Virus record (IMG/VR): IMGVR_UViG_3300042880_000509
Reading direction: 5' to 3' (one strand)
Length of the DNA: 64,000 nucleotides
From: a virus
Lineage: Duplodnaviria > Heunggongvirae > Uroviricota > Caudoviricetes
This document shows, in pieces, positions 9,706 to 57,322 of the stretch. Under the pieces are notes generated by a model. That model was not told where the DNA came from, searched no databases, and was given only the letters and a program-made list of their open reading frames with translations. The translations under genes and the position numbers were made by a program. The first letter of the stretch is position 1. Every line of letters begins with the position of its first letter.

Positions 9706-9710
9706 ATTAT

Positions 9711-26318: not shown

Positions 26319-27185
26319 CTATTGACATACCCAATTCCAAGTTGGGAAGTTTTTATTTCTTATCCTATCTCTTACACTACTGTCTGGCATATTAAAATAT
26401 TTTGCAGCTTCAACCGCAGAATTAAATAACAAACCATCAATCATACATTTTTTAGCTTGTGGTTTTGGTGGTTCTATCAATGCGTATTTTTCTTTTCTTT
26501 TTTCATTCGCTAATTTTGATATTTCTTTACCACCAATTCTACCTTTTTTCCATCCCTCTTCAATAATTCTTGGATCATCAGGTAATGTCCTTAAATGTTC
26601 TCCTTTATCATTATAAAACCACAACTTATTTTTGTGTGCGATTGACATTTTTTCTTTTGTTTTGTCAGTGTGTCTGTGATCAGAACTTTTTTTTCTTAAT
26701 ATTTTTAGTGTCTCATCTGTATGTTTTTTTCCGTAGAATGAATTTTTTTCACCGCCATATTTACCAATTCTTGATAAACTAATTTTGTTTCTTTGTTCTT
26801 CTGTAAGTTTTTTACCAAAATTTGGATTATTAGTCCCTCTTATACTTTTAGAATAATCTTCCTTTATTAAATCATATAACCTTGAATTTATTTTATGTCT
26901 TTCTTGGTATTCTCTCTTAACATTACACATATTCCATAATGCAAATCTTAATTTTGTGTTTTTAGGGTAAATTTCACATAAAAGTAAATGACAGATGAAA
27001 TGTTCTCTAGCGGTTAAAACAACTAAATTCCAAACATCATTTGACCCCCCAAGACATTTTGGTATGATGTGATGTGTTTCTGTGTATCCAGTGATAGTTC
27101 TATTTTTACCTCTTTCAACAATACTATTATAAATTTTCAAATAATCCATCGGTTTCCGTATATTATATAAATATATGGAAACCAA
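26319..27185 (-). CDS. Freestanding HNH homing endonuclease with NUMOD-like DNA-binding repeats
   Basis: HNH motif ETHHIIPKCLGGSNDVWNLVVLTAREHFICH. Repeated GKK(L/H)T(E/D)E..-K(I/M)S modules (NPNFGKKLTEEQRNKISLS, NSFYGKKHTDETLKILRKK). Likely start at the internal MDYLKIYNS. Confidence 0.8.
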   Translation of the reverse strand: MVSIYLYNIRKPMDYLKIYNSIVERGKNRTITGYTETHHIIPKCLGGSNDVWNLVVLTAREHFICHLLLCEIYPKNTKLRFALWNMCNVKREYQERHKINSRLYDLIKEDYSKSIRGTNNPNFGKKLTEEQRNKISLSRIGKYGGEKNSFYGKKHTDETLKILRKKSSDHRHTDKTKEKMSIAHKNKLWFYNDKGEHLRTLPDDPRIIEEGWKKGRIGGKEISKLANEKRKEKYALIEPPKPQAKKCMIDGLLFNSAVEAAKYFNMPDSSVRDRIRNKNFPTWNWVCQ

Positions 27186-27193
27186 CGAAAAAC

Positions 27194-28024
27194 CTAAATT
27201 GCCAACTCTAATTTTGAATTTATTTTAGTTATACCGTCAATACCGGTAATCTCAAAATCATCAATTGTATAGTCGTAGAAGTTTTTATTTTCCTTTAAAA
27301 TTAACTTTGGTTGTGTGTCTAATGGTTCCTTGTTTAATAGTTCTGAAACACCATCAAAATGTCTATCATATATATGAAGGTTTTGGACTAAATGACAGAA
27401 CTTACCAACTTTATAACCACAATGTCCCGCAACCATCATTTGTAAAGCCAAATATTGCACTTTATTAATATAACCCGCAACCAAATAATCGTTTGATCTT
27501 TGGACCAACGTCATATCCAAAACCTTATCTTTATCAACTTTTCTAACCGAACAGAGTATTTCATAAGCACAAGGAAATAAACCATTTGTTTCTTCTAAAT
27601 CAACATATTGATACATACTAATAATATGCCTTCTACCAAATGGATCATTAACTAATCCATCAAGTAGTTTATTCATCAAATCATATCTTTTGATTGTTGC
27701 ACCATATCTCTGACCAATACTATTATCTCCAATATTCCATTCTTCCCACCAGTTAATACCCATCTCACGAGCAACATCAAGTGATGAAGTTTGTTTTTGG
27801 TATATCCAAAGTATTTCTTTAATTCCGGTTTTAATTGCAGTATTCCTTAATGTTGTAATTGGAAACTCACCTTTTAAAATATCATATTCTTCAAATACCT
27901 GTGTGATAAACTTTGAGTGTGATGGTGTCCCATCCTCGTATTTTGGTCTTGGGTTTTCATCCCAAGAACCTTCTGACATAATCTTTGATAAGTTCTGAAT
28001 ATAATATTTGTCGGCTTTACTCAT
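27194..28024 (-). CDS. thyA: Thymidylate synthase (ThyA; long T4-td-like form)
   Basis: FPITTLRNTAIKTGIKEILWIYQ. RRHIISMYQ...FPCAYE (catalytic Cys). QRSNDYLVAGYINKVQYLALQMMVAGHCGYKVGKFCHLVQNLHIYDRH matches the ThyA C-terminal block. Confidence 0.9.
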   Translation of the reverse strand: MSKADKYYIQNLSKIMSEGSWDENPRPKYEDGTPSHSKFITQVFEEYDILKGEFPITTLRNTAIKTGIKEILWIYQKQTSSLDVAREMGINWWEEWNIGDNSIGQRYGATIKRYDLMNKLLDGLVNDPFGRRHIISMYQYVDLEETNGLFPCAYEILCSVRKVDKDKVLDMTLVQRSNDYLVAGYINKVQYLALQMMVAGHCGYKVGKFCHLVQNLHIYDRHFDGVSELLNKEPLDTQPKLILKENKNFYDYTIDDFEITGIDGITKINSKLELAI

Positions 28025-31036: not shown

Positions 31037-32305
31037 TTATAAAAACAACTTTTTTGATTGTTTTTCTCTGTGAAATTTAATCGCAAAACGGTGAACTTCT
31101 TCCTGGATTTTACCAAACAAAGTAAAGTTTATATCATCTTTTATGTTAAACTCGGATCCATCAATTTTATGTATGATTGATGATTTGTGATTTGAATCTT
31201 TTGAAATTGAAATAAGGTCAACTTGGTCTAAAATTCCAAGATTTTCAAATACTTTTCTGGCAACACCTAATTGACCTTTACCACCATCAATGATTACAAG
31301 ATCCGGAAGTTTTTGTTTTTCATCAAGTAATCTTTTGAATCTACGGTTTAATACCTCATCAAATGATTGGTAGTCATCAACACCGGTAAAACTTCTAATG
31401 ATATATTTACGGTACTCTGATTTATCCGGAGTTTCATTTTTAAATCTAACTGATGCTGCAACATTTGAATCGCCCTGGTTGTGTGAGTTATCAAATGCTT
31501 CAATTGATACTGGAATGTTTTTAAGACCCAGAACATTTTTAATATCAAAAGCTTTTTTGTTATATTTCTGTAATCTTATAACATTCAACTTACTATCAAT
31601 ACTTTCCAAACTTGTAAGTTTTGATAATAAGTCTTGTGCTTTTTCAAACTCCAGATTGTCAGAGTAATACTTCATAGACTTCTTCAACTTTGTTTTAAGA
31701 CTGGAAATATCAAGTGATAGAACTTTTTTCACATCACGAATAATCTCATTGTAATAAAACTTTTTGATGTTATTCACGCAAGGAGCATTACATCTTCCCA
31801 AGTGAAATTCCAAACAGGTCTTGAACTTTTCTTTTGTGATATTTTCTTCCGTTAAATCATAAGAACAACTACGAAGTTCAAAGACATCGTGAATAAGATT
31901 ATAGATCTCACGACATAACATTCCGGAAGTAAAATCCAAACTTACTCTGTCGTCTTGTTTGTCTCTTACAATCTCTAGTTTTGGAAATTCTTCTTCTGTA
32001 AAGCACAAAGACCATTTTCTGGTCTTATCATCTTTTCCTTTGATGTTGAACTTTGGTTTGTATAACTTGATTAGTTCTTCTTCTAGGATAATTGCTTCTT
32101 GTTCTGATGATGTAATCTTGAACTCAACATCAACAATGTTTTCAACAAGGGTTTTTGTTTTGCCTGTATGATTTTTTTGAAAATAAGATGAAACCCTTTT
32201 TGGTAAAAACTTGGACATACCAACATAGATGATTTGTTCTTTGTCGTTTTTGAACAAATAACAACCTGCATTTTTTGGTATGTCTTTAAGTTTTTCTAAT
32301 ATCAT
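31037..32305 (-). CDS. UvrC-like nuclease (GIY-YIG domain plus UvrC RNase-H-like endonuclease domain), lacking the C-terminal HhH region
   Basis: GIY-YIG motif GCYLFKN...IIYVGMSKFLPKRVSSYF. UvrC-homology region LIKLYKPKFN. Cys-rich motif RSCSY...GRCNAPCV. C-terminal IEAFDNSH...YRKY...DDYQSFDEV...PDLVIIDGGKGQL. Only 422 aa compared with about 610 for bacterial UvrC. Confidence 0.8.
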   Translation of the reverse strand: MILEKLKDIPKNAGCYLFKNDKEQIIYVGMSKFLPKRVSSYFQKNHTGKTKTLVENIVDVEFKITSSEQEAIILEEELIKLYKPKFNIKGKDDKTRKWSLCFTEEEFPKLEIVRDKQDDRVSLDFTSGMLCREIYNLIHDVFELRSCSYDLTEENITKEKFKTCLEFHLGRCNAPCVNNIKKFYYNEIIRDVKKVLSLDISSLKTKLKKSMKYYSDNLEFEKAQDLLSKLTSLESIDSKLNVIRLQKYNKKAFDIKNVLGLKNIPVSIEAFDNSHNQGDSNVAASVRFKNETPDKSEYRKYIIRSFTGVDDYQSFDEVLNRRFKRLLDEKQKLPDLVIIDGGKGQLGVARKVFENLGILDQVDLISISKDSNHKSSIIHKIDGSEFNIKDDINFTLFGKIQEEVHRFAIKFHREKQSKKLFL

Positions 32306-37346: not shown

Positions 37347-37648
37347 ATCACGTAAGTTATAACACCATTTTCTTCAACTACTTCTAAAACCCCATCATTT
37401 TCTGAAAGTTTTTCTAATTGATCTGGAGTTAAATTCACACTATCTGGTCCTTGAAACACTTTAAATGGTTGTGTTAATTTTAATCTTGAATCTGTAATCA
37501 AATTCAAAGTCATTTCATTTTCGCATTCAACCAAAGTTGGGTATTGTCCTCCAACTGTAACAATTACCTTATCACCAACATTAATTTCATCAAGAGATGC
37601 TAGGTATGGTTTTTCATCAACGATGAATAATTTTACTTTCTTTGTCAT
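37343..37648 (-). CDS. Hypothetical protein (101 aa)
   Basis: ORF. Confidence 0.45.
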   Translation of the reverse strand: MTKKVKLFIVDEKPYLASLDEINVGDKVIVTVGGQYPTLVECENEMTLNLITDSRLKLTQPFKVFQGPDSVNLTPDQLEKLSENDGVLEVVEENGVITYVI

Positions 37649-38031
37649 TTTTCAATATTAAAATTTAATAGAGTTTCAACTTCTTGATTTTTTGTTTCAA
37701 CAATTGGTCCCCACTCTCCTTTATACGTTATACCTCTTACAGGTTTATTATCAATCCAAACATATTCTTCATCTTCAGAACATCTTGGTTTATCAGTTAT
37801 CAAATCATTAAACTTAAATCCGTGTCTCCATAACCAGGCGAGTGTAGTTCCTTTATCTTTATATTCTCTGGCGGTAAAGAAAACTATTTTATTTCCTTCA
37901 TCATAAAGTTTATTTATTTCTTCTTTGGATCCTTCGTATGGTTTTGCGATTGGGTATAGATAGCTATCCTCATTTTTAATGTCGTCACATACAGTTCCAT
38001 CAATGTCAATTAAATAAACTCTTTTTTTCAT
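37645..38031 (-). CDS. HAD-superfamily phosphatase (small, 128 aa)
   Basis: Motif I LIDIDGTV (DxDGT). Motif II VFFTAR. Confidence 0.55.
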   Translation of the reverse strand: MKKRVYLIDIDGTVCDDIKNEDSYLYPIAKPYEGSKEEINKLYDEGNKIVFFTAREYKDKGTTLAWLWRHGFKFNDLITDKPRCSEDEEYVWIDNKPVRGITYKGEWGPIVETKNQEVETLLNFNIEK

Positions 38032-38342
38032 AACCTCAAATCGTTTTTAGCGTTCATAGTTATAATATAATCCATTAAATTTTTAACTAAAGAATCGGCA
38101 TCAACTTTTTCGTATAATTCTGGGTATCTGTCTTGAAGTAGTTTATTCTCTTCATACTCTCTACAACTTGAGAGGATGTCTGAAAGCATTGATCTTAACA
38201 TATGTTCTTTATCATATGTATCTTCAACTTTTCTTTCCAATACTTGACCTTCAAGTTCTTGAGTATATTCAATAAGTTCTTGGACTTCAGGTTTTTCAAG
38301 AAGATCAGGTCGTCTACGAAATAGTTGTTTTATGTTTTTCAT
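38028..38342 (-). CDS. Hypothetical protein (104 aa)
   Basis: ORF. Confidence 0.45.
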   Translation of the reverse strand: MKNIKQLFRRRPDLLEKPEVQELIEYTQELEGQVLERKVEDTYDKEHMLRSMLSDILSSCREYEENKLLQDRYPELYEKVDADSLVKNLMDYIITMNAKNDLRL

Positions 38343-38884
38343 TCCAAAAACTTTAATATTTTTTCTTTAATACCTGATTGTTTTATTCCTTCGTTGTGTG
38401 GTCGTTTACAATGAATAAAGTTCTCAAGTCCCCAACCATCTCGTTTTGACATATCAAGATCATCAACAGCAACCCAATTTGTTACTTCCGGATGTTCTTT
38501 TAACCAATGTAAAATTTCAATATGTCGTTCGTATTCTATTTTATTAAAATATGGTAAAAGAAAATCATCCGGCAATTTACCTTCACGAAATAGAACACTA
38601 CAAAATGCTGTTATATCAATTGGTGGTTTAATTCCACGAGTAACAAACATTTCTTTTATTTGTTCTAATGTTCCGTGTTTTTTCCAATCAGATGAAATAA
38701 CTAATTCACAACCGGTTTTTTCTACGATTTCATTTAATACTTTAACAGCTTTTTGATTGAAGCTGTCCATTCGGATATCCATGGGAGTTTCCGGATTTGA
38801 GTCAAATCCTTTTTTCTTGTATCGTCCGCCCCATTCAGAAGAAAGACAAATTACACCATCGTGATCTAAGAACATTACTTTCAT
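38339..38884 (-). CDS. Putative HAD-like phosphatase (181 aa)
   Basis: N-terminal MFLDHDGVI fits DxDG[TV]. The rest is unassigned. Confidence 0.4.
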   Translation of the reverse strand: MKVMFLDHDGVICLSSEWGGRYKKKGFDSNPETPMDIRMDSFNQKAVKVLNEIVEKTGCELVISSDWKKHGTLEQIKEMFVTRGIKPPIDITAFCSVLFREGKLPDDFLLPYFNKIEYERHIEILHWLKEHPEVTNWVAVDDLDMSKRDGWGLENFIHCKRPHNEGIKQSGIKEKILKFLE

Positions 38885-41002: not shown

Positions 41003-41590
41003 TTAATCATTATTTTTTATAACTTCAATAACTTTTAAGGACCAGGGATCAAAAAAGTTATCAGTTTTACAAATTTCAATTGTATTTGTTAGTGCGTTAA
41101 AGTAAATGTCACCGTTTTTAATTGGTTCCATAAGTTTTTTTAGATATCTTTTTCCTTCATATTCAACATAAAGTTTTTCATTTCTATGTTCATCACAAAG
41201 GGTATAAACCCACCCATTAATTTTGTGTTGTTCTCCAGGTTCACCACACACTTCACAAACTTGGAATGTTTCTCTTTCGGCTTCAGCAACAAAATAAAAT
41301 CCATTTTCTGGTAGGTTATCCAAAAATATACTCATACCACCAAATTTTTCTTTTACATTAATAAAACTTTTATCCCAACCAAGTTTTATTAAAACTTCAA
41401 ATAATCTTTGTACTATACCCAACCAACCATTACCAATTCCAAATTGATTTCGTTTAAGGATTGGTCCTTTATCTACCCTATATGTTCTTTGAAGTCCCTC
41501 AATTTTTTCAAGGAAGTTTTCAAACTCTGCGTCTGTTCTATGATTATTGTTCATTCGTATTCCCATCTTTTCTTTGGTGTCTAACAACAC
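41003..41590 (-). CDS. Hypothetical protein with CxxC...C..H motif (195 aa)
   Basis: CEVCGEPGEQHKINGWVYTLCDEH. Confidence 0.5.
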   Translation of the reverse strand: MLLDTKEKMGIRMNNNHRTDAEFENFLEKIEGLQRTYRVDKGPILKRNQFGIGNGWLGIVQRLFEVLIKLGWDKSFINVKEKFGGMSIFLDNLPENGFYFVAEAERETFQVCEVCGEPGEQHKINGWVYTLCDEHRNEKLYVEYEGKRYLKKLMEPIKNGDIYFNALTNTIEICKTDNFFDPWSLKVIEVIKNND

Positions 41591-41975
41591 TTAAAGCATT
41601 TGATAGTGTCCAGTAAGCATCCCAAAATCCACCACGGTCATCAAGGAAGATATTTGCATACAACTTTCCGTTAACACCATAAGGTTTATTCCATTCTGGG
41701 TGCATTTCATTTACTCCGTGTACTTCAATACCTAAAGCTTCAACCTGTTCTTTTCCTTTCTGTAATTGATCCTTACTTCTTGCAGTATTTATCAAAAAGT
41801 ATATACCTTCTTCTTGACACTCCAAAATTAAATCAACCATTTTTTTACAGTTTTCTTTAAGTTCTTCATTGTAAGGAATGATTGTATCATCAAGATCACA
41901 AGCTATAATAATCTTACCATTTCTCAACCATTCCTTGACTAATCTGTTTGTATAAAAATTTGCGTGATGTCTCAT
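41544..41975 (-). CDS. HAD-like phosphatase (143 aa)
   Basis: IIACDLDDTII (DxDxT motif I). FLINTARS (motif II). Confidence 0.5.
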   Translation of the reverse strand: MRHHANFYTNRLVKEWLRNGKIIIACDLDDTIIPYNEELKENCKKMVDLILECQEEGIYFLINTARSKDQLQKGKEQVEALGIEVHGVNEMHPEWNKPYGVNGKLYANIFLDDRGGFWDAYWTLSNALSVVRHQRKDGNTNEQ

Positions 41976-43029: not shown

Positions 43030-43253
43030 TCTTCTTTTTTCATTGCCACCCTAATACCGTCAATTGTTACAAATACCTCATCTGTAAAAACCATTGGGTC
43101 TTCCATTTTTGTGGGGTCTATTTTAATTTTATTGTAATAGACACTCTCATTTGCAAACCTAACTAATACTTCAACTTTCTCTGACATAACTTTTGTGAAA
43201 TGATATATGTTCTTCAATTTGTTTTTCCAATTCCTCTTTAGCAATTTCAACAC
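43002..43253 (-). CDS. Hypothetical small protein (83 aa; possibly starting at the internal Met)
   Basis: ORF overlapping the end of 43171..44310. Confidence 0.35.
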   Translation of the reverse strand: MLKLLKRNWKNKLKNIYHFTKVMSEKVEVLVRFANESVYYNKIKIDPTKMEDPMVFTDEVFVTIDGIRVAMKKEDWNTLEQWK

Positions 43254-44310
43254 GAATTTTTAAATCTTCATCAAATTTCTTTTTTTCTTCCATTATTTCT
43301 TCCGTTTCAGATTCAACATCTTCTTCGTATGGTTCAAGAACGGGCATTGGTATTAATCTTGCGGTTCTTCTTAAACGACGAAGTGCTGGTGCTGGTGCGT
43401 CTATATATCCTGGTAATTCATCCGATATCTTCATTTCTTCTACACAAAGATTATCTTCCGGTAATGATCCATTGTATTTTCTCATTTCATTTTTTTCATC
43501 TTCAGAAAATAACCTATAATTTGGAATTGTTGTTGGTGATTTTAAATCACATTCCATTAAAATTATCTGGAGGATATTCATTGGAAGACCGGTCTGTATT
43601 GTATCAATTTGTTTATCTTCCTGGTTATATGTTTTAAACACATATTGTTCGTGATCATCCATCATTTCATATGGTTGTGGGAAACTTCTATAAAAAGCAA
43701 ACTTTTTATTTTCTTTTTTATCAATAAGATAAATTAAGATTCCTCTTGAATGGTTGTAGAAATAACCGGGATCATTAATCATTGCTGTACACCATTTTGT
43801 TTGATACCCATATGAACAAGATGACGCATAGGTCAATGGTTTAAAAATCATATAATTATCGTCTTCAAAAATCTTGTGAATTTCTTTTTTTGATTTTTTA
43901 AACAACTCACGATTCTTGGCTTCAAATAATTGTGTTTCCAACATATCCCAGGAATCGTATTTACTGATGTCTTTTTCATCAATCACACCTTTTTCCATTA
44001 ATTCTGTAAACTCAACAAATCTTTCCATACTATTCCAAGTAAATACGAAATCACAAAAAAAGATTCTTGATAACATGTTTTCAAAAGAATTATTTGGTAC
44101 AACTCTTTCTAATGGAGGTTGGTTTGTTTCTTGTATTCTAAATTTTCTATTTTCATCTTGTTCTTTTTGCCACGATTCAATTCTTTTATTAATCATTTTA
44201 ACCAAAAACTGTGAATATTTTTTGGTTTTACTTGTATCAAATCTTTCCAACATATTGGCAAGATTTAAATTTAAAATTTCATTTTCTTTTTTTAATTTCT
44301 TAATTCCCAT
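43171..44310 (-). CDS. Hypothetical protein (379 aa), paralog of 54542..55603; acidic C-terminal tail
   Basis: Shared block FEDDNYMIFKPLTYASSCSYGYQTKWCT vs HEDDTWLVLTPLSFDASRVYGSNTKWCT. N-terminal blocks are also similar. Confidence 0.6.
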   Translation of the reverse strand: MGIKKLKKENEILNLNLANMLERFDTSKTKKYSQFLVKMINKRIESWQKEQDENRKFRIQETNQPPLERVVPNNSFENMLSRIFFCDFVFTWNSMERFVEFTELMEKGVIDEKDISKYDSWDMLETQLFEAKNRELFKKSKKEIHKIFEDDNYMIFKPLTYASSCSYGYQTKWCTAMINDPGYFYNHSRGILIYLIDKKENKKFAFYRSFPQPYEMMDDHEQYVFKTYNQEDKQIDTIQTGLPMNILQIILMECDLKSPTTIPNYRLFSEDEKNEMRKYNGSLPEDNLCVEEMKISDELPGYIDAPAPALRRLRRTARLIPMPVLEPYEEDVESETEEIMEEKKKFDEDLKIRVEIAKEELEKQIEEHISFHKSYVRES

Positions 44311-44506: not shown

Positions 44507-44748
44507 TATCTTAAAACAAAAGGATGAATAATAACCACAATTTGCTCAACTCTACCTTCCTGTGGTATTATGGCTCTATCTTCTTTTACAATAATATCCA
44601 TAAATCCAAGATCTTCTTTTAATCTATTGGCTTGGATTTCAACTTCTTTTTTTGCTTCTTCTTCATTTTTAAAGAACCCAAAATATGAATCACAATTTCC
44701 GGTTTTATCACAAACTCCAAAAATCACTTCTCTTGCTGGTTTTATCAT
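44506..44748 (-). CDS. Hypothetical protein (80 aa)
   Basis: ORF. Confidence 0.45.
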   Translation of the reverse strand: MIKPAREVIFGVCDKTGNCDSYFGFFKNEEEAKKEVEIQANRLKEDLGFMDIIVKEDRAIIPQEGRVEQIVVIIHPFVLR

Positions 44749-44885
44749 AATCTATTTGCTATTTGTTTTATTAATAATTCTTCTTCATTTGTTAATCGGT
44801 AATAAGAGTTCCATATTTTACTTAAATCGTCTCTTAATTCTTTTTCTCCGTTTGATTCTTCATCACCCCTAACAATTTTTCTTAT

Positions 44886-44944
44886 TCATCTTTAAAACCT
44901 TGTTTTTCAGTTGTTTTTAAATGGGTGTTGATATATATTAGTTA
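44886..44944 (-). repeat. 59-nt intergenic repeat, copy 1 (begins exactly at the stop codon of the methyltransferase gene)
   Basis: TCATCTTTAAAACCTTGTTTTTCAGTTGTTTTTAAATGGGTGTTGATATATATTAGTTA on the plus strand. The copy at 50801..50859 differs at one position. Confidence 0.7.
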
Positions 44945-45736
44945 GTTGCAATACTGCGAAGCCCTCCGAACAGCAACATCGTAATATTGTTTTTCCTTTT
45001 CTATTCCAATTGATTTGCGATTTAATTTGATACAAGCCAAATTGGTAGTTCCTGAACCCATTGTATTATCCAATACCATATCACCTTCGTTTGTGTATGA
45101 TTTCACAAGCATTTCAAGTAAAGCAAGCGGCTTCTGAGTTGGATGTATCGTTCCATCAAGCTTTGTTTTTTGTTTATCTGAAGCAAAAACTTGTACACTT
45201 CTTGGGTATCTGTCAGTTTCTCCACCACCACTTACATCTTGCTTTACTTTCCCATACACTTCTGTTTTATTACAAACTTCGGCTTTCTTGGTATAGGTAT
45301 TTACAGGCTTATGTCCTTCTGTTTTTTGTGGATTAAACTTTGGGGTTTTATTGTAAAATACTAAAATATTTTCGTGTGCTTTCATAGGCATTTTCTTTGC
45401 ATTAAAATATCCTGTTGCTTGTGTTTTCTCCCAAATCCATTCGTATTTTAACCATTCCAAATTTGAGCAACCAAGCACTTTATCAAATGGTGTTTGTGCA
45501 AATAAAACTACCACTCCATTATCTTTTAGTATTCTTTTGTATTGCTCCCAAAGTTTATTTAAGTCTAAAACAGAATCCCATTTGCAGTTAGTAGTTCCAT
45601 AAGGCAAATCGCAAATAATAGCATCAATTGATTTATCATCAATAAAAGGAAAAACATCAAAGCAATCAGCTTTCACAAAAGTACTGCCACTAACACGTGT
45701 TTGGCAAAATGGCTGTTCAGTAATTCTATCAATCAT
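44942..45736 (-). CDS. DNA methyltransferase (N6-adenine/N4-cytosine family, beta-class order)
   Basis: Motif IV DAIICDLPYGT (DPPY-like) is N-terminal. The C-terminal AdoMet motif VLDNTMGSGTT places it in PF01555-like architecture. Confidence 0.8.
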   Translation of the reverse strand: MIDRITEQPFCQTRVSGSTFVKADCFDVFPFIDDKSIDAIICDLPYGTTNCKWDSVLDLNKLWEQYKRILKDNGVVVLFAQTPFDKVLGCSNLEWLKYEWIWEKTQATGYFNAKKMPMKAHENILVFYNKTPKFNPQKTEGHKPVNTYTKKAEVCNKTEVYGKVKQDVSGGGETDRYPRSVQVFASDKQKTKLDGTIHPTQKPLALLEMLVKSYTNEGDMVLDNTMGSGTTNLACIKLNRKSIGIEKEKQYYDVAVRRASQYCN

Positions 45737-45919
45737 TCGTTCTTAATTTTAAAGTTTAGTAATTCTATTTAAGTTCTGGTTCAGCCACTTCGCCAAGCCC
45801 GATAACGTTATAACCATTCGGCCATATTATTTTTATCACTTCTACCCATTTGGTCATAAACCTCATCCAAATAAACATCTATTCTAACGTAACTCATTTT
45901 TTATCTTTTTACAAAGTTA

Positions 45920-45958
45920 ATAAAAAAAAGTGACTCAACCAAGTTAATGGGAGTCACC
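45920..45958 (-). terminator. Intrinsic terminator overlapping the last codons of the RNA ligase gene (GTGACTC...GAGTCAC plus T8)
   Basis: 7-bp stem with a 14-nt loop. The minus strand continues with TTTTTTTT. Confidence 0.65.
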
Positions 45959-47077
45959 TACGTTATTTTTTTCACCATATATCAAGTAATCAGGATTTAT
46001 TACCTTACTTACTTTTCTACGGTCACCAGTTATAGATTTAACAACAACACCTTCGTGTGGTACTTTGGTGCCTTCTATGTTATTATTGAAGACGAATTTA
46101 TCTTGTTCTTCTTTATTCCAATTACCCTGGTATAACAATTCAACTTGTGGTAATTGTAAACAATCAAAATGTACGGTTTCATTTATGTAAGGCTGGTATA
46201 CACCATCAACTTCAACATCAAACCCGGCGAATTTAACATCAGTTAAACCGTACTCATAGTTTTTTTGTATACCAGCTCCATATATCTCACCATATATTAC
46301 AACACCTTCAGTTAGGTCAGATGGTTCGTAAGTATCTTTTACGTGATCCCACAATTTACCTCTTATGTCGTATGTGCTACCAACAGTTTTCCATACATCG
46401 GTGTCATAGAAGCCTTGAGAATCGGATCCTTTCTCAACATTATGTGAGCCGTAAACATATTCAAATGCAACCCATTGATTTCCGAAAAACATTTTAACAC
46501 GGTCCCATAGAGAAAGTTTTTTCTTTCTAACTATTCCGTAACGAGCATTGGTTCCGTGAAGTTTACGAGTTATAACAACTTCGTCTTCTTCACTAAACAT
46601 ATCCGGAACATTCTTCTGGTTTGGAAATTTGTAATAAACATGGAAGTTAGGGTTTTGATGGTATTTTACTTTACGTCCACCAACACTTAACTGAACGGTT
46701 TTAACTGGTGGTTCGTATTTAGTTATACCAAGTATTCCCATCATATCATCGCCTTCGTTTACGTTATTCTCCAAAGATTTTGGAGCTAAGTACTTGAATG
46801 GTATTAACAAACATTCAGAGTAAACACCACGAAGTTTTACGGTTCTAACTCTTTGCCCTTTACGAAGGTAATTAGTTACACCCATTAAATCAGATAAATC
46901 CTGTGGTATTACAGCATCGGTAGTTGCTACAACAACCTTATCACCAACCTGGTATTCTCCTTTTTTAGTTATGGCGTTCCATCCACCAACAGTTACTAAT
47001 TCTATATTATCAGCACCCGGTATTTCAGACACGGATCCTATTTTTCCTACGTATGCAACACTATTTAAATTTTTCAT
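45944..47077 (-). CDS. RNA ligase (Rnl2-like nucleotidyltransferase) with N-terminal tRNA-binding OB-fold (Myf/Trbp111-like) domain
   Basis: N-terminus AYVGKIGSVSEIPGADNIELVTVGGW...KGEYQVGDKVVVA matches the tRNA_bind fold. Motif I KLHGTN (Rnl2 KIHGTN). EGVVIYGE, GFDV and a C-terminal PHEGVVVKS...RRKVSKV (motifs IV/V). Confidence 0.6.
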   Translation of the reverse strand: MKNLNSVAYVGKIGSVSEIPGADNIELVTVGGWNAITKKGEYQVGDKVVVATTDAVIPQDLSDLMGVTNYLRKGQRVRTVKLRGVYSECLLIPFKYLAPKSLENNVNEGDDMMGILGITKYEPPVKTVQLSVGGRKVKYHQNPNFHVYYKFPNQKNVPDMFSEEDEVVITRKLHGTNARYGIVRKKKLSLWDRVKMFFGNQWVAFEYVYGSHNVEKGSDSQGFYDTDVWKTVGSTYDIRGKLWDHVKDTYEPSDLTEGVVIYGEIYGAGIQKNYEYGLTDVKFAGFDVEVDGVYQPYINETVHFDCLQLPQVELLYQGNWNKEEQDKFVFNNNIEGTKVPHEGVVVKSITGDRRKVSKVINPDYLIYGEKNNVGDSH

Positions 47078-47079
47078 TT

Positions 47080-47340
47080 TTATATATTTTCAAATTCTTC
47101 TTTTACTGAATCAATTTCTTCTTTCAATCTTTCAAGTTCTTTGGATAACATCTCTTTAATGGCTCCTTTGTTATAAAGACTAACCTCATCTTTTCTTGGA
47201 AAAGATCCTCCTATTGAGTAACCAATTGTCACACCTAAAGAACAAGATTTTAACGCAGATTCCAATTTATACTTCTGTCTTTCCAACCTATCAAGATCTT
47301 CTTTAATTTTTTTTGCTTTTTCAAATTTTTCTAATTCCAT
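47080..47340 (-). CDS. Small coiled-coil protein (86 aa)
   Basis: ORF. Heptad-rich. Confidence 0.45.
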   Translation of the reverse strand: MELEKFEKAKKIKEDLDRLERQKYKLESALKSCSLGVTIGYSIGGSFPRKDEVSLYNKGAIKEMLSKELERLKEEIDSVKEEFENI

Positions 47341-47495
47341 CAGTCATTCATTTTTAAACTAGGTGTTAATAACAAGGCAAAAAGACACATAGCACTTCCT
47401 GTAAAGTAAACCGCGGTTCCTATTAATCCAAAGAAACCTAAATAAATCAAACTAATTCCTAAATATTTCATATCACAAAGGTATAAATAATTTTT

Positions 47496-48305
47496 TTAAT
47501 TATCACTATCTTCTTCAAAATTTATCAATAAATCAAACTCTTTTTCTTTTCTTTTTTCTTCCACCCTCTTTAAAGAAATATTAAAATAATCCATACTATT
47601 CTCAATTCCGATAAAGTTTCGGTTGGTATTTATACAAGCAATTCCTGTTGTACAACTACCAAATGTATTATCTAAAATAGTATCACCATCATTACTGTAT
47701 GAGTTTATCAACCATTCAATCAATTCAACAGGTTTTTGTGTGCTATGTAATTGGTCTTGTCTTCTCCATTTTTGTTGAAAAAATTGTACAGTTGAAGGAT
47801 ACCTAAATCCATCATTAATAGTTTCACTTTCAGAAATTACACCAAGTTTATGATTGTTTGGTTTATCTCCTTTATTCGCTTTTCGCTTTCTATAATATGG
47901 TTTGCCTTCTTCAAGTTGTGGATTATAAACAACTTTACCTTTACCAAATATTAAAATGTTTTCGTGTTTTTGAACAGGTCTATATTTAGCGGTAAATGAA
48001 CTACCACTTTTAGATTTGTGCCAAATTATTTCATACTTATACATTTTTTCATTCGATAATGCTAATTTGTAAGCAAACAAACCTGTTCCAAATAAAGCAA
48101 TAGCACCATCATCTTTTATAATCCTTTTATATTGTTCCCAAAGTTGTTCAAATGGAATTACAATATCCCAATAGTTTTTAGTTGAACCATAAGGTAAATC
48201 ACAGCAAATAAAGTCAATACTTTTATCAGGTATCAATTTCATTTGTTCTATTGTATCTCCGTATCTTAAATCTATTGTCATAATTTTATTCAACGTCGTC
48301 TTCAA
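47496..48305 (-). CDS. DNA methyltransferase, second copy of the same family
   Basis: DFICCDLPYGST and ILDNTFGSCTT. About 35-40% identical by eye to 44942..45736 over conserved blocks. Confidence 0.8.
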   Translation of the reverse strand: MKTTLNKIMTIDLRYGDTIEQMKLIPDKSIDFICCDLPYGSTKNYWDIVIPFEQLWEQYKRIIKDDGAIALFGTGLFAYKLALSNEKMYKYEIIWHKSKSGSSFTAKYRPVQKHENILIFGKGKVVYNPQLEEGKPYYRKRKANKGDKPNNHKLGVISESETINDGFRYPSTVQFFQQKWRRQDQLHSTQKPVELIEWLINSYSNDGDTILDNTFGSCTTGIACINTNRNFIGIENSMDYFNISLKRVEEKRKEKEFDLLINFEEDSDN

Positions 48306-49469: not shown

Positions 49470-49883
49470 TCACAAAGATAAATGTTTTTTTGCATTTTCC
49501 AAAAATAATTCAATATTTTTTTTACCAACAGGATTTGCCGAATGGACCAAATATTCCGGCAATGGTTGGTTCTCATCCGCACAGTATTCAACAAGAAATT
49601 TAGCACAGTCAAGTCCAGTTTTTTCTTTGATGTTGTCGTAATCCAAAGTTCCTTTGGTTGCAACATTTCTAAAATATTCATCCATTGCAGTATCACCAAG
49701 ATCGTGATCAAATGAAACAAATTCAGGAGCACCATTTACTTCTAAGTATTGTACGAACTCGTCATAGTTTCTTACAACATCCCAATCATTCTCCCAATAA
49801 AATTTATTATGTTTATCCGGAACCAATCCAATTGCGTCTTTTGGTGAACGCACATCATCCAAGAACAATTTATTATTTTTCAT
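49470..49883 (-). CDS. Hypothetical protein (137 aa)
   Basis: ORF. Confidence 0.55.
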   Translation of the reverse strand: MKNNKLFLDDVRSPKDAIGLVPDKHNKFYWENDWDVVRNYDEFVQYLEVNGAPEFVSFDHDLGDTAMDEYFRNVATKGTLDYDNIKEKTGLDCAKFLVEYCADENQPLPEYLVHSANPVGKKNIELFLENAKKHLSL

Positions 49884-52165: not shown

Positions 52166-52600
52166 TTATTTTGGTGTGATTCTATATTTGAAGAAGGGTA
52201 TGTTTGTTTTTACTTTTTTTACATCGTGATGATCATTATAATCCATCTTAACCATTTCTTCATAATCAATGGTGTATTTGTTGTCATTATAATTTGATGT
52301 TAATTCATCGCCTTTTTTAATATCTTTGATTGTTTTACCATAAATTTTATTACCAACTTTGGTATTTTTGATATTTGGATCAAAACTATGATTAAGGTAT
52401 CTAACCGGTTCTCCACCAAAATAGGACCCATCTTTGATTATAACATAAAGATATTCAGTATTTTTTTTAATATCTTCTTTAGCAAAAACACCTTTTCCGG
52501 CAATTTTACTTTTTTTTACTTCAATTTTATCATAAAAAGAATTATCTAACTTTTTTTTATTAGTCTCCTCAGTTAAAATTCTTTTTATAATTGATTTCAT
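52166..52600 (-). CDS. SET-domain protein (putative protein-lysine methyltransferase) with shared leader
   Basis: SKIAGKGVFAKEDIKKNTEY (GxG motif), RYLNHSFDPN (NHSxxPN) and GDELTSNY (ELxxxY). N-terminus MKSIIKRILTEET. Confidence 0.65.
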   Translation of the reverse strand: MKSIIKRILTEETNKKKLDNSFYDKIEVKKSKIAGKGVFAKEDIKKNTEYLYVIIKDGSYFGGEPVRYLNHSFDPNIKNTKVGNKIYGKTIKDIKKGDELTSNYNDNKYTIDYEEMVKMDYNDHHDVKKVKTNIPFFKYRITPK

Positions 52601-53873: not shown

Positions 53874-54527
53874 TTAACCCACAACTCCAATTAAATCATC
53901 TAGGTGGTGATCTCCAGACATATCTGATCCTACTGGTCTTTTATCCATCATTTTAATGATATCGTCAATACTATATGGATCCATACCATTTCCATCCATT
54001 CCAACATCCAATCTTTTTCCGTTACCAAATTTCTTTTCTCTACCTAAATGTACGTGACCGTGCAAATGGATTACGCCTTTATTTAGACCATGCCAGCTCT
54101 GTAATGGATAATGACATAAAACAAAGTTTCTATCATTTATTTTAACTTCAAGGTAGTGGTTTACACTTAAAAACTTACGTTGTATGGCCATTCTATCATT
54201 TTCAATATGGTGATCGTGATTTCCTAATATAAGATGAATGTTTTTACAAACCAATCTATCAAGAAATAATCCGATATTATCAAAACCACCAAATGAAACA
54301 TCGCCTAACATTATTAGTGTGTCGTCTTGTCCTACCATATTGTTAATGCCATCAATAAGTCTTTCGTTCATTTGTTCAATAGTTTCAAAATCCCTCACCG
54401 AATCAACTGGTATTTGTCCATCCTGGGTTCTCCAGTTTGTTACACCTCGTACAATATTTTTGTGTCCGTAATGTGTATCCGATGTTATGAATACTTTTCC
54501 TGTTGTTAATATTTTTTTAAAACTCAT
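53874..54527 (-). CDS. Calcineurin-like metallophosphoesterase (second one in the window)
   Basis: VFITSDTHYGH, IMLGDVSFGG, LILGNHDHH, HLHGHVH. Confidence 0.8.
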   Translation of the reverse strand: MSFKKILTTGKVFITSDTHYGHKNIVRGVTNWRTQDGQIPVDSVRDFETIEQMNERLIDGINNMVGQDDTLIMLGDVSFGGFDNIGLFLDRLVCKNIHLILGNHDHHIENDRMAIQRKFLSVNHYLEVKINDRNFVLCHYPLQSWHGLNKGVIHLHGHVHLGREKKFGNGKRLDVGMDGNGMDPYSIDDIIKMMDKRPVGSDMSGDHHLDDLIGVVG

Positions 54528-54541
54528 AATTTTTTTTATTC

Positions 54542-55603
54542 CTAATAATTAATTGTTCCACCAGTAAATGAAGTTATTGGTCTTACGTCATGTTCTGACA
54601 CTAAACTTGGTGTTGTATGATTAAAATATGTTAAATAATCATTAATATCCATAGTCATATTTCTAGGATAGTCTGTAATTCTTCTTCTTATAACAGTTTC
54701 TCCATTCACAATTTGTTCAGTTTGTTCTTCTGTTGGTAAATCATCGTTTGGTCCTACTGGTGCCATATACGGTTCAGATATCCACGTGCTTTTATAACGA
54801 TTAAGATCCATTAAACTTCTTATTCTGTCAACTATGTTTGAATGGTCAGTTGTTTCATTATTGCCTTGGTAAGTATTAATTATATCTGAAACAGAAACTG
54901 GTTTATTTCTTTTTTTACCATAAATCAAATCAATTGTTCTTTCATTTTTTTGTAATTCTTTTCTAATCTTTAAAAAGATTTCATCCGGAATAAAATTCAC
55001 AAACATTGGACTAACTTCACTATCGTCCGCGGTCCAAGCTTGGAATTTATCATCACCGTAATCTCTTGAAAAAGCTATTTTAGTATCAGTTTTTTTATTA
55101 ATACAATAAACTAACCTATGTGTTTTTAAATATTTGTCCCAATATCTTTCTTGTGTTGTACACCATTTTGTATTTGATCCATAAACTCTTGAGGCATCAA
55201 AACTTAAAGGTGTTAATACTAACCAGGTATCATCTTCGTGTATTTTCAAAATTTGTTTTTCAACTTCTTTTTGTTTTTCAATATCTTTGGCAATCTTAAC
55301 TTGTTCGTTTAACTCTTTAAAATTTTTATATTTACTAATGTCTTTTTCTTTTATTCTATTAGCTCTTGAGTGTCTTTCAAATTCATTTAAAACTTCAATT
55401 TCATTTGAACCGAACAAAAATACTCCCAGATAACCTTTAAGCTCATCCAAATTTGGACTGTAATATTGGTTATCCCTTTTAAAGTTTTTAATTAAAAACT
55501 CGGTATACTTGTAAGTGCCAGTCGGATCTAATGATGTTATGATATCAATTAATGATACATTTAAATCCGGATGTTGTTCTTTAAGTTTGTCTAATCTACT
55601 CAT
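54542..55603 (-). CDS. Hypothetical protein (353 aa), paralog of 43171..44310
   Basis: See 43171..44310. Confidence 0.6.
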   Translation of the reverse strand: MSRLDKLKEQHPDLNVSLIDIITSLDPTGTYKYTEFLIKNFKRDNQYYSPNLDELKGYLGVFLFGSNEIEVLNEFERHSRANRIKEKDISKYKNFKELNEQVKIAKDIEKQKEVEKQILKIHEDDTWLVLTPLSFDASRVYGSNTKWCTTQERYWDKYLKTHRLVYCINKKTDTKIAFSRDYGDDKFQAWTADDSEVSPMFVNFIPDEIFLKIRKELQKNERTIDLIYGKKRNKPVSVSDIINTYQGNNETTDHSNIVDRIRSLMDLNRYKSTWISEPYMAPVGPNDDLPTEEQTEQIVNGETVIRRRITDYPRNMTMDINDYLTYFNHTTPSLVSEHDVRPITSFTGGTINY

Positions 55604-55992
55604 AACTTTACTTCAAATCTATTTTTCATTTGTTCTATTTTATCTTCTGGAACATTGTGAACATTTGTTCCTCCGTGTCTATTTTCAACAATTATAGTAA
55701 AAACTTTATAACCATATTTTTTTGCTAATTCAAAATATTTTTCTAACTCCCATTCTTGTGTAAAGGTGTTAGAAACAACTATTTTATCCACATTTAATAC
55801 CATATCCCCTTCTACTCGGTTTTGACACCATTCGTGTGCTAGTTTAATTTTGGATCCGTCAAATTTATATTCTCCCGAAATTGGATCTATAAAAAACATA
55901 TCAGCTTCGTAGTGTCTCCCACCTAATGTTTTAGCAAATGTTGATTTTCCTGATCCTACAACCCCTCTAACACAGTATAATATTTTTTCCAT
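55600..55992 (-). CDS. Small P-loop kinase (AAA_33/polynucleotide-kinase-like)
   Basis: Walker A GVVGSGKST four residues from the N-terminus. 130 aa. Resembles the T4 Pnk kinase module and zeta-toxin/AAA_33 kinases. Confidence 0.6.
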   Translation of the reverse strand: MEKILYCVRGVVGSGKSTFAKTLGGRHYEADMFFIDPISGEYKFDGSKIKLAHEWCQNRVEGDMVLNVDKIVVSNTFTQEWELEKYFELAKKYGYKVFTIIVENRHGGTNVHNVPEDKIEQMKNRFEVKL

Positions 55993-56544: not shown

Positions 56545-56964
56545 TTAATTGAAGATTTTTTCAATTATTTTCTTTAATTGATCATTATTTTTGTTAATTG
56601 GTATCTCATCTTTACCAAAATACTCACACATAGTGTGTTCGTGTCCATCTTTTGCTTTTTCAAGATCTGGTTCCAACTTACTTTTTGAGTTATGGTAAAA
56701 TACAAACATTACACCTTTTTTATCTTTTAGATTGTTTTTATAGATATGTAATAACCCTGCCAGATCTAGCTTACCATTTATTTTTAAATTGGTCTCTTCT
56801 TTAAATTCTCTTAAAGCACCATCCTTTGGGTCCTCACCTTTTTCTAGGTGTCCTGAAGGAACTGACCACTCATTTGGTAACGACTCCTTTGGTCCTCTTT
56901 TACAAAGAAGAACTTTATCTCTGTATTTTACTATTATACCACCGTATCTTTTGAATTGACTCAT
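56545..56964 (-). CDS. Nudix hydrolase (139 aa; start reassigned to MSQFKRYGG)
   Basis: Nudix box GHLEKGEDPKDGALREFKEETNL (G-x5-E-x7-REUxEExGU). The upstream 70 codons of the track ORF are low-complexity read-through. Confidence 0.75.
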   Translation of the reverse strand: MSQFKRYGGIIVKYRDKVLLCKRGPKESLPNEWSVPSGHLEKGEDPKDGALREFKEETNLKINGKLDLAGLLHIYKNNLKDKKGVMFVFYHNSKSKLEPDLEKAKDGHEHTMCEYFGKDEIPINKNNDQLKKIIEKIFN

Positions 56965-56974
56965 ATTTATAAAT

Positions 56975-57322
56975 ATGGAATTAGTTATAAATAATAATTT
57001 ATTTAATGTAAAGACTGTCATGACCCGAAAAGATATTGAAAGGGGTATGATGGGTAAAAAATTCAATAAAGATTTTAATGGTATGTTATTTTTAATGGAT
57101 GATAAAGAACATTCTTTCTGGATGAAGGATTGTATTACATCACTTGATATAATCTTTATTAAAAATAATAAGATAACCAAAATCCATAAAAATTGTAAAC
57201 CGTGTAGAACTGATGATTGTGAAAGATATACCGGTAAAGGTGATATGATCTTAGAAATAAATGGTGGTGACTGCGATAAATACGATATTGTTGTTGGTGA
57301 TAAACTAATTTTCCAGGATTAA
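56975..57322 (+). CDS. DUF192-like protein (COG1430 family)
   Basis: MLFLMDDKEHSFWMKDCITSLDIIFIKNNKITKI...CKPC...ILEINGG matches the DUF192 signature. Lone plus-strand gene. Confidence 0.5.
   Translation: MELVINNNLFNVKTVMTRKDIERGMMGKKFNKDFNGMLFLMDDKEHSFWMKDCITSLDIIFIKNNKITKIHKNCKPCRTDDCERYTGKGDMILEINGGDCDKYDIVVGDKLIFQD

Follow-up and report, generated by a model that had tools for sequence, protein, structure and literature searches.

A divergent Rnl5-type RNA ligase with predicted RNA end-healing companions, and incidental DNA methyltransferase cassettes, in an uncultured low-GC jumbo-phage lineage

Introduction

Do the genes that surround a phage RNA ligase work with it, or have they merely come to lie beside it? 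The question is raised by a 64,000-nucleotide stretch of tailed-phage DNA (Caudoviricetes; IMG/VR record IMGVR_UViG_3300042880_000509; the whole stretch is hereafter called the window), in which the gene of an RNA ligase (45944..47077, minus strand, 377 aa) lies between two genes for DNA methyltransferases (MTases). A preliminary description, made from the sequence, read this arrangement as a single counter-defence island, in which the MTases would protect the phage DNA from restriction and an Rnl2-like ligase with an uncommon tRNA-binding N-terminus would repair tRNAs cut by restriction-linked anticodon nucleases. A new tRNA-binding ligase architecture wired to MTases would be notable, but the evidence presented here shows otherwise. 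What remains is a re-annotation, namely a divergent canonical Rnl5 enzyme within a split heal-and-seal set of an uncultured low-GC jumbo-phage lineage. In our view the best explanation (probability roughly 0.8) is that this Rnl5 ligase of a Flavobacterium-type jumbo phage acts as the sealing enzyme in an RNA heal-and-seal toolkit whose genes are dispersed, and that the MTases are incidental.

Assignment of the ligase to the Rnl5 family

The ligase (45944..47077) matches PF21189 (“PHA02142 OB-fold domain”, residues 8-93, E=7e-15) and PF09414 (RNA_ligase, residues 165-359, E=1e-13) in Pfam, as well as phrog_968 (E=1e-59). Its top NCBIfam match is TIGR02306 (RNA_lig_DRB0094, the model of DraRnl from Deinococcus radiodurans), which extends over residues 11-365 (E=2e-37), and near-identical homologues already carry the JGI name “RNA ligase (TIGR02306 family)”. 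Against the Protein Data Bank (PDB), a single-sequence search returned NgrRnl of Naegleria gruberi as the sole significant match (E=1e-16), and a profile of 86 diverse homologues matched the same enzyme over both domains (E=5.8e-41). The AlphaFold2 model of the ligase (pLDDT 93.3, pTM 0.90) aligned by Foldseek with the whole NgrRnl chain (E=3.8e-22, TM 0.73/0.81). Rnl5 enzymes are defined by an N-terminal OB module followed by a C-terminal nucleotidyltransferase (NTase) domain without C-terminal appendage (PMC4408790, PMC7261155, PMC1807946), and this is the domain order found here, the chain ending 35 aa past the motif IV glutamate (E342) with no appendage. That the gene encodes an ATP-dependent RNA ligase, as first proposed, is thus borne out by the PF09414 match and by the intact catalytic motifs described below.

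The Rnl2-like label had to be abandoned, since the match to TIGR02306 and NgrRnl is full-length and T4 Rnl2 aligns through the NTase core alone. T4 Rnl2 matched the ligase sequence at E=0.79 and the ligase profile at E=1e-15 via the NTase half only (residues ~160-360); the Foldseek comparison with T4 Rnl2 gave a TM of 0.38, again over the NTase core only, the ligase being without the Rnl2 C-terminal domain; and the TIGR02307 model scored 23.9 bits against a cutoff of 197. T4 Rnl2 (gp24.1) does share with the window ligase this NTase core and a KxHG motif I with His at +2, and in vitro both it and Rnl5 enzymes work best on duplex nicks that offer an RNA 3'-OH, but in T4 Rnl2 the NTase domain is N-terminal and followed by a C-terminal helical domain, and there is no N-terminal OB domain.

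Within its family the ligase appears divergent. Its TIGR02306 score of 128.8 bits is below the NCBI equivalog cutoff (151), and we therefore class it by sequence as a divergent Rnl5 subfamily member and not as a strict TIGR02306 equivalog. With DraRnl and NgrRnl it shares the N-terminal OB and C-terminal NTase domains and the lack of an appendage, and with DraRnl also the TxKLHG of motif I, the GE of motif III, an identical EGVVV in motif IV and the motif V lysine (SxK/xSK). It differs from them by its low identity to NgrRnl (~22%), by an extra helical insert of ~25 aa between motifs I and Ia (residues ~185-205), and by its location in a phage together with end-healing genes, whereas DraRnl comes from a Deinococcus megaplasmid and NgrRnl from a eukaryote. 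Phage Rnl5 homologues (e.g., in Caulobacter CcrColossus, in Mycobacterium cluster phages and in phrog_968, or ORF209c of Aeromonas phage 44RR2.8t, which was aligned with DraRnl in 2007; PMC1807946) are the same two-domain protein and typical cargo of large and jumbo phages. The window ligase is at most ~30% identical to them at the amino acid level, and belongs to a distinct, metagenome-rich, low-GC (Flavobacterium-like) jumbo-phage clade with its own upstream open reading frames (ORFs), CC86 and TM43.

The architecture itself, described as uncommon by the first reading, is in fact ordinary, because OB plus NTase is the Rnl5 hallmark in a very large family. At E<=1e-3 the ligase was matched by 7,439 representatives of 50%-identity clusters (nearly all of the best 150 being ~340-400 aa long and matched full-length), a 90%-clustered database yielded 4,917 matches, and a further 641 matches came from cultured or curated phage records, mostly annotated as “RNA ligase”; cluster representatives and phage records share the same domain order. 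Rnl5 enzymes have been reported from ten bacterial phyla, bacteriophages, archaea and unicellular eukaryotes (PMC7261155). Among closer relatives (63-98% identity), the ORF is full-length and of constant length in at least 193 viral contigs and in hundreds of metagenome proteins. Some of the viral contigs with close relatives of the ligase reach ~304 kb, hence our description of the lineage as one of jumbo phages; the G+C content of the window is ~29-30%. Overall, sequence comparisons and predicted fold argue for a canonical, divergent and complete Rnl5 family enzyme, i.e., for the re-annotation of a known kind of ligase.

Catalytic residues and the N-terminal OB domain

Residue conservation was scored in the alignment of the 86 diverse homologues. 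Both motifs named in the preliminary description, ITRKLHGTN (including K172) and HEGVVVKS (including E342), are present, and K172, H174, G175, E264, Y276, E342, G343 and V345 occupy invariant columns, with D54, R76, R83, S87, K120, R179, S211 and K358 among the columns conserved at 90% or more. These positions can be compared with the essential residues of DraRnl and NgrRnl, which were defined by experiment (PMC1807946, PMC7261155). Motif I (T170-R-K172-L-H174-G175, with K, H and G in 86/86 sequences) corresponds to the essential T163/K165/H167/G168 of DraRnl; motif III (G263-E264, the Glu invariant) to DraRnl E230 and NgrRnl E227; motif IV (E342-GVVVK, the Glu invariant) to DraRnl E305-GVVV and NgrRnl E312; and motif V (S357-K358, the Lys in 83/86) to K326 of both enzymes. 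E264, E342 and K358 also line up with the NgrRnl residues in the PDB profile alignment. Motif IIIa (Y316-Q-G318-N-W320), assigned from the DraRnl motif pattern and not from structural superposition, would correspond to YEGPFD of DraRnl, where F281 is the aromatic residue stacking on adenine, and its aromatic column holds F (34), Y (33) or W (12). The candidate motif Ia (G210-S211-H212), in a segment outside the PDB profile alignment, would stand opposite S185/K186 of DraRnl, both essential; the serine is found in 84/86 sequences and is followed by H (58), R (18), N (6) or K (2). In the OB domain, D54 (80/86) and K120 (83/86) align with NgrRnl D53 and K121, and R76 (79/86) corresponds by spacing (R79-x4-R84-x-R86) to DraRnl R79, while no counterpart of NgrRnl Arg4 (R4) was identified in the window ligase. 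With these residues in place the ligase is very probably an active enzyme, and the conserved residues alone predict an ATP/Mn2+-dependent sealing of 3'-OH(RNA)/5'-PO4 duplex nicks through a ligase-AMP intermediate.

The first ~110 aa, initially likened to a Myf/Trbp111 tRNA-binding domain, form the OB fold recognised by PF21189. Several weak remote matches link this region to tRNA-binding proteins: pheT_bact in NCBIfam (0.003), and in the profile comparison with the PDB a “tRNA-binding protein” (3bu2, 1.8e-4), PheRS-beta (~7e-4), and MetRS-C and YgjH-Trbp111 (~2e-3), in line with which Foldseek weakly matched 3ers (E=2e-3). On the other hand, a Pfam scan of the ligase gave no match to PF01588 (tRNA_bind) at E<=0.1. 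The likeness thus survives as a remote relationship to Trbp111/PheRS-B2 OB folds, as judged from sequence and model. In characterised Rnl5 enzymes, adenylylation depends on the OB domain, which touches the gamma-phosphate of ATP; R4, D53 and K121 of NgrRnl and R79 of DraRnl are the OB residues which engage the gamma-phosphate and the second metal, and OB deletion in both characterised enzymes abolished ligase adenylylation and overall nick sealing while step 3 was kept (PMC7261155, PMC1807946). As for substrates, 3'-OH(RNA)/5'-PO4 duplex nicks are what Rnl5 enzymes seal; their action on single-stranded RNA is “comparatively feeble”, and breaks in the loop of a stem-loop (the PrrC-type lesion) fall to Rnl1 and Rnl4 (PMC4408790). 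This disfavours the repair of PrrC/RloC-type anticodon breaks that had been attributed to the ligase.

Predicted RNA end-healing genes as conserved companions of the ligase

To place the ligase among its neighbours, we fetched 80 related viral loci (ligases 63-95% identical; cited below by their L numbers) and mapped the window's neighbouring proteins onto them, counting genes inside ±6 kb of the ligase. These loci represent one phage lineage, so that the counts are not independent of shared ancestry. A recurrent backbone is found in relatives, in the order p192, cREC, p82, p172, TM43, CC86, ligase, a 90-aa ORF, p80, p68, p379 and an AAA ATPase.

The conserved companions of the ligase within this frame are RNA end-healing enzymes, as assigned by family, with predicted activities. 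The most frequent is a calcineurin-like metallophosphoesterase (MPE; 49 of the 80 loci), followed by a P-loop kinase (47), the HAD_SAK phosphatase (36) and the cREC protein (35). In the window, the MPE (53874..54527, minus strand, 217 aa; PF00149 E=1e-7, phrog_547 “phosphoesterase” E=2.5e-47) is a candidate 3'-end healing phosphoesterase. The kinase (55600..55992, minus strand, 130 aa; PF13671 AAA_33 E=3.6e-8) matches the kinase half of phrog_505 “polynucleotide kinase” (E=1e-6) and positions 2-109 of the 737 of phrog_8238, annotated as RNA ligase (E=1e-8), and is a candidate polynucleotide 5'-kinase; both it and the MPE were assigned by PHROG and Pfam because neither had a significant PDB match. 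The cREC protein (49470..49883, minus strand, 137 aa; PF20274 cREC_REC E=5.6e-23, phrog_1479 E=4e-27) is predicted to open 2',3'-cyclic phosphate ends. Three phosphatases of the HAD superfamily lie on the other side of the ligase, all on the minus strand: HAD_SAK_2 (38339..38884, 181 aa; PF18143 E=3.5e-23), of the “Swiss Army Knife” RNA-repair type; a small protein of 143 aa (41544..41975; PF08282 E=4e-6), possibly an end-healing phosphatase, with a homologue near the ligase in 23/80 loci (311-322 nt downstream of it in L011 and L033); and one of 128 aa (37645..38031; phrog_415, positions 160-239 of the 295 of phrog_505, and a weak match to PF25109 HAD_PNKP, E=0.004), which resembles the phosphatase half of a T4-type Pnkp, the kinase at 55600..55992 matching the other half of the same phrog_505.

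The ligase and all the healing genes are on the same strand in the window, and tight same-strand operons are seen in the most divergent relatives. In L058 and L076, 6-7 nt separate the end of the kinase gene from the ligase, the order MPE-kinase-ligase is found in L076, L080 and L081, the genes of cREC, CC86 and the ligase are contiguous in L039-L044, L048 and L060, and cREC lies 71 nt upstream of the ligase in L063, L064 and L067. The tight linkage of Rnl5 to a kinase, phosphoesterases and cREC in this phage clade speaks for a role of Rnl5 in RNA repair, and the clade would also offer a tractable system for the predicted cREC activity.

Operonic association of cRec with RNA ligases and an inventory of jumbo-phage heal-and-seal systems have been described before (Iyer et al., 2021; PMC7824862), and the present set shares with these systems the kinase, phosphoesterases, cREC and ligase and the presumed healing, then sealing, of 2',3'-cyclic phosphate/5'-OH ends. 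It differs in that the ligases there are mainly Rnl1, Rnl2 and RtcB, whereas here an Rnl5 enzyme is found and the window has no self-encoded tRNAs. The same presumed logic applies to Pnkp and Rnl1 of T4 acting against PrrC, except that the healing functions are split in the window into small genes spread over ~18 kb instead of being joined in one bifunctional Pnkp.

Further genes were noticed near this set. A 144-aa SET-domain protein (52166..52600, minus strand; PF00856 E=1.7e-12), a putative protein lysine methyltransferase, is encoded between the cREC and MPE genes. Two paralogues of 379 and 353 aa (43171..44310 and 54542..55603, both minus strand; 30% identity, E=5e-22, both matching phrog_17056 and phrog_28193) stand one downstream of the ligase region and the other between the kinase and the MPE, so that each half of the repair set has a copy beside it. 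A NUDIX hydrolase gene (56545..57180, minus strand; PF00293 E=4.5e-18) lies ~550 bp upstream of the P-loop kinase, a position that fits the NAD+/ADP-ribose-linked repair network discussed with cRec by Iyer et al. (2021; PMC7824862). In L059 (5233-5982) and two other divergent loci, a 249-aa ORF adjoins the ligase and looks by eye like the head of a CCA-adding enzyme or poly(A) polymerase (GGxVRD...DxD), which, if confirmed, would add support for an RNA/tRNA-repair context.

The small upstream genes CC86 and TM43

All five ORFs at 44942..48305 are read on the minus strand. Four of them (the two MTases, the ligase and an 86-aa ORF) have exactly the coordinates previously given, and the fifth, a hydrophobic ORF of 43 aa (TM43, 47340..47471), had been omitted. 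The 86-aa ORF (CC86, 47080..47340), reported as a small coiled-coil protein, is indeed helix-rich and coiled-coil-like; its stop lies 2 nt before the ligase start, and TM43 is immediately upstream of it with a one-base overlap. CC86 was found in 36/80 related loci, mostly 6-7 nt upstream of the ligase, and TM43 at the same position in 18/80. We recovered 424 homologues of CC86 with a constant length of 86 aa, the best 120 of which are 72-97% identical and include no Pfam domain, and no match in cultured phages. A role as general Rnl5 partner was considered and rejected, as the homologues listed are all from this lineage and cultured phages gave no match. TM43 matched no family in Pfam and PHROG scans. 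CC86 is thus a conserved gene restricted to this phage lineage, and the only element of the locus with residual novelty.

One might go further and suppose that cREC, CC86 and Rnl5 make up a dedicated RNA-repair pathway, in which cREC would be a 2',3'-cyclic phosphodiesterase of a new type and CC86 an adaptor recruiting Rnl5 to broken structured RNA (e.g., tRNA). Were this so, a physiological substrate would be defined for phage Rnl5 enzymes for the first time, but we consider it doubtful and put it forward as speculation.

Two methyltransferase genes inserted independently around the ligase

MTase-A (44942..45736, minus strand, 264 aa; PF01555 E=7e-35) and MTase-B (47496..48305, minus strand, 269 aa; PF01555 E=8.5e-31) are orphan DNA MTases, MTase-A of the beta class and probably N6-adenine specific. 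Their PF01555 scores are 121 and 108 bits (cutoff 26.7), both match phrog_67, and both show the motif order of beta-class enzymes, in which a catalytic D/S-P-P-Y/F-type motif comes ahead of the AdoMet-binding FxGxG motif, with CDLPYG towards the N-terminal end and (T/F)-(M/F)-GSG/GSC towards the C-terminal end; their closest PDB relatives are the N6-adenine beta-class enzymes M1.HpyAVI, M.MboIIA, CcrM and M.RsrI. That they belong to one family, as the preliminary description stated, is confirmed by 44% identity over 243 aa (E=7e-64). A local tandem duplication was ruled out as their origin, MTase-B being closer to gp07 of the Muminvirus mymlan (56%) than to MTase-A (44%). MTase-A in turn is 74% identical in nucleotides to MTase genes of Flavobacterium Muminvirus. 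In these phages, three or four such MTases follow one another without a ligase, and the arrays resemble the window's genes in family (phrog_67), in the presence of several divergent copies split by tiny ORFs, and in sequence (74-80% nucleotide and 42-56% amino acid identity), with the difference that the window MTases flank an RNA ligase operon in a jumbo-phage accessory region. A Flavobacterium-like host is suggested by this identity of 74-80% between the window's MTase DNA and the MTase genes of Flavobacterium siphophages (Muminvirus).

Only 3/80 related loci (L002, L020, L021) have any MTase near the ligase, and the 77 without one include loci whose ligases are 91-95% identical. Both MTases occur in L021 (99.6% identical to the window's in protein, with MTase-B at 100%), L020 has a different allele of the MTase-B type (61%), and L002 has MTase-A and no MTase-B. 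Among the ~71 loci whose sequence extends far enough downstream, MTase-A is thus confined to L002 and L021. The two genes come and go independently of each other, as L002 with A only and L020 with its different B allele indicate. Divergent MTases overlooked in the other loci were considered and rejected, since a relaxed search (E<=1e-2, any coverage, four Muminvirus MTases as extra queries) added L002 only; a clustering of 539 unassigned ORFs near the ligases gave no further MTase cluster among the clusters listed.

The insertion junctions could be mapped for both genes. In L009, L004 and L034, an intact ORF of 90 aa separates the ligase from p80. The MTase-A cassette of the window and of L021 splits this ORF, which breaks off after “...GCCGAATGGTT” and resumes at “AATAAGAAAAATTGTTAG”, and tblastn with the intact ORF of L012, together with alignment and reading of the sequence, located in the window a 5' remnant of 29 codons plus a new stop (45808..45897, minus strand) and, with tblastn and alignment, a 3' remnant (44748..44885, minus strand; 74% identity over 46 aa). 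At the other end of the locus, backbone homology breaks at 48286-48296 and resumes at 47521-47526, two breakpoints that map to overlapping positions in MTase-free loci, and the MTase-B ORF closes with ~25 nt that mimic the p172 3' end. From these alignments MTase-B is an independent insert of ~770 bp at the p172 stop codon.

Transcription also appears to separate the ligase from MTase-A. A terminator-like hairpin (45922..45959, minus strand), with a 12-bp stem containing a 2-nt bulge and followed by U8, overlaps the ligase stop codon, which places MTase-A beyond it. RNA folding gave a dG of -17.8 kcal/mol (z=-4.1), with 0/200 shuffles folding as well, and the hairpin sequence is conserved in 5/5 aligned loci, such that it probably ends the ligase transcription unit. 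We relied on direct folding here, as a consensus scan for terminators and promoters was uninformative (counts at or below the shuffle expectation); the bulge explains why this simple scan missed the hairpin.

Taken together, the sequence comparisons identify the MTases as recent, independent cassette insertions and not as functional partners of the ligase, most simply viewed as ordinary orphan anti-restriction cargo. The proposal of an MTase-ligase-MTase counter-defence island is contradicted by these data, i.e., by the three loci of 80 with an MTase, the mapped junctions, and the hairpin between the ligase and MTase-A. More generally, adjacency in mosaic phage regions calls for comparison with relatives before any function is read into it, and this locus shows orphan MTase cassettes hopping into phage genomes and leaving the 3' end of the gene upstream duplicated over a short length.

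Several further observations concern these insertions. The MTase-A insertion of L021 (7190-7770) is ~440 bp longer than the window's and holds an extra 115-aa ORF; the window cassette resembles it with a deletion between two ATAACG repeats, and the MTase-A cassette thus seems to be itself evolving by short-repeat deletion. In L063 (6001-7634) and L064 (6001-7641), a 70-aa ORF is inserted just past the ligase gene, between two direct copies of 222 nt from the ligase 3' end (residues 304-377); the 1.6-kb match span of these ligases could have been taken for an intron or intein, and was traced to this insertion and duplication. MTase-B bears the same signature on a smaller scale, a cassette plus a duplicated or imitated upstream 3' end, which suggests a recurrent cassette-insertion mechanism in this phage lineage.

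A proposed heal-and-seal route and its alternatives

By homology with NgrRnl and DraRnl, the OB domain (D54, R76, K120) and the NTase domain of the ligase would bind ATP together with two Mn2+ ions so that its pyrophosphate is oriented for departure. K172 would attack the alpha-phosphate to form ligase-AMP, and the AMP would be passed to the 5'-phosphate of the substrate, after which attack by the RNA 3'-OH would close a 3'-OH/5'-PO4 break whose ends are kept together by a duplex or structured context. Such ends would be prepared by the companion enzymes, with cREC opening 2',3'-cyclic phosphates, the MPE and HAD/SAK phosphatases stripping 3'/2'-phosphates, and the P-loop kinase phosphorylating 5'-OH ends. 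As a whole, the toolkit may reverse RNA cleavage by metal-independent RNase effectors of the host, whether the targets are tRNA, rRNA or mRNA, and the ligase may thereby serve in counter-defence. The MTases would be anti-restriction cargo independently acquired in two insertion-prone gaps flanking the ligase operon, protecting the phage DNA without any joint work with the ligase. The general RNA-repair role attributed to the ligase by the preliminary description is in this respect plausible, whereas the tie to restriction through anticodon nucleases is not supported.

A number of points weigh against this heal-and-seal explanation. Rnl5 physiology has been called “uncharted”, and the sole in vivo phenotype, that of DraRnl, points to DNA repair at ribonucleotide-containing nicks (PMC5397189). 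For phage Rnl5 enzymes, the window ligase included, activity is a prediction from sequence, and the latter has a His at position 212, where DraRnl has the essential Lys186, besides its TIGR02306 score below the equivalog cutoff. In the window the healing genes lie 1.6-8.5 kb from the ligase with unrelated genes interspersed, and their co-occurrence in the 80 loci of a single lineage partly reflects shared ancestry and not selection for linkage. A PDB sequence search gave no significant match for the kinase and MPE, whose assignments rest on generic family matches. Finally, a tRNA gene search found none in the 64-kb window, nor is any RNase or anticodon-nuclease context visible there.

The main rival holds that the ligase serves chiefly in DNA repair or replication, sealing phage DNA nicks with a ribonucleotide on the 3'-OH side (gap-filling ribo-patches or unprocessed primers), as proposed for DraRnl, with the kinase and phosphatases close by working on DNA ends or on nucleotides. 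Deletion of rnl in D. radiodurans indeed causes radiation sensitivity and delays genome reassembly (PMC5397189), and Rnl5 enzymes seal RNA-OH/pDNA nicks on DNA templates in vitro (PMC4408790). The window also encodes a UvrC-like nuclease, a thymidylate synthase and a NUDIX protein. T4 Pnkp-type enzymes, moreover, act on DNA ends too, which would suit this rival. We nevertheless find it unlikely, given that the most specific neighbours, cREC and HAD_SAK_2, fit ends made by RNases and not DNA nicks (as far as their family annotations, which are predictions, can tell), and that the tight kinase-ligase and cREC-ligase operons of relatives mirror known RNA heal-and-seal systems. That the ligase has no current role, and is a non-functional or drifting accessory gene, might be argued from the mosaic, insertion-rich accessory region in which it sits and from its sub-cutoff TIGR02306 score, but is scarcely credible for an ORF kept at full and constant length across so many viral contigs and metagenome proteins, with all catalytic residues intact and a confident fold prediction.

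There remains the reading with which we began, of MTases, tRNA-binding ligase and coiled-coil protein as one co-selected island against restriction and a linked anticodon nuclease (PrrC/RloC). PrrC-type nucleases are genetically linked to type I restriction-modification systems, which lends the idea its appeal, the four genes stand side by side in one orientation in the window, as they do in L021, and the OB domain has a remote similarity to OB folds that bind tRNA. Synteny, however, largely refutes it: most relatives, even those with very similar ligases, carry the ligase without an MTase nearby, either type of MTase can occur without the other, one of them sits within a disrupted ORF downstream of the terminator-like hairpin and the other is a discrete insert, and Muminvirus phages have similar arrays with no ligase. 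Nor does the biochemistry of the family help, in that Rnl5 enzymes are feeble on single-stranded or loop ends, anticodon-loop repair being the niche of Rnl1 and Rnl4 (PMC4408790), and that the role shown for the Rnl5 OB domain is the positioning of ATP (PMC7261155). We thus regard the island as highly improbable, and retain the heal-and-seal explanation.

Other genes of the window

Typical large-phage accessory genes are found across the window, including those of a thymidylate synthase, a NUMOD3/I-TevI-like endonuclease, the NUDIX hydrolase, peptidoglycan hydrolases and a UvrC-like nuclease. The last of these (31037..32305, minus strand) is a 422-aa protein with a GIY-YIG and a UvrC RNase H endonuclease domain (E=7e-47). 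The NUMOD3/I-TevI-like homing endonuclease is encoded directly downstream of the thymidylate synthase (26319..27185 and 27194..28024, both minus strand), the same classic pairing as td/I-TevI of T4, with the difference that the endonuclease gene is free-standing in the window. A tandem array of five consecutive divergent paralogues of ~222-232 aa occupies 9034..12437 (minus strand), with 34% identity between b and e, 31% between c and d, and 21-25% for the other pairs (E down to 3e-27). Lastly, a 532-aa PAS-domain sensor histidine kinase (18276..19874, plus strand; PAS_9/PAS_3 E~1e-17, HATPase_c E=5e-16), an unusual cargo for a phage, is encoded on the strand opposite to most genes.

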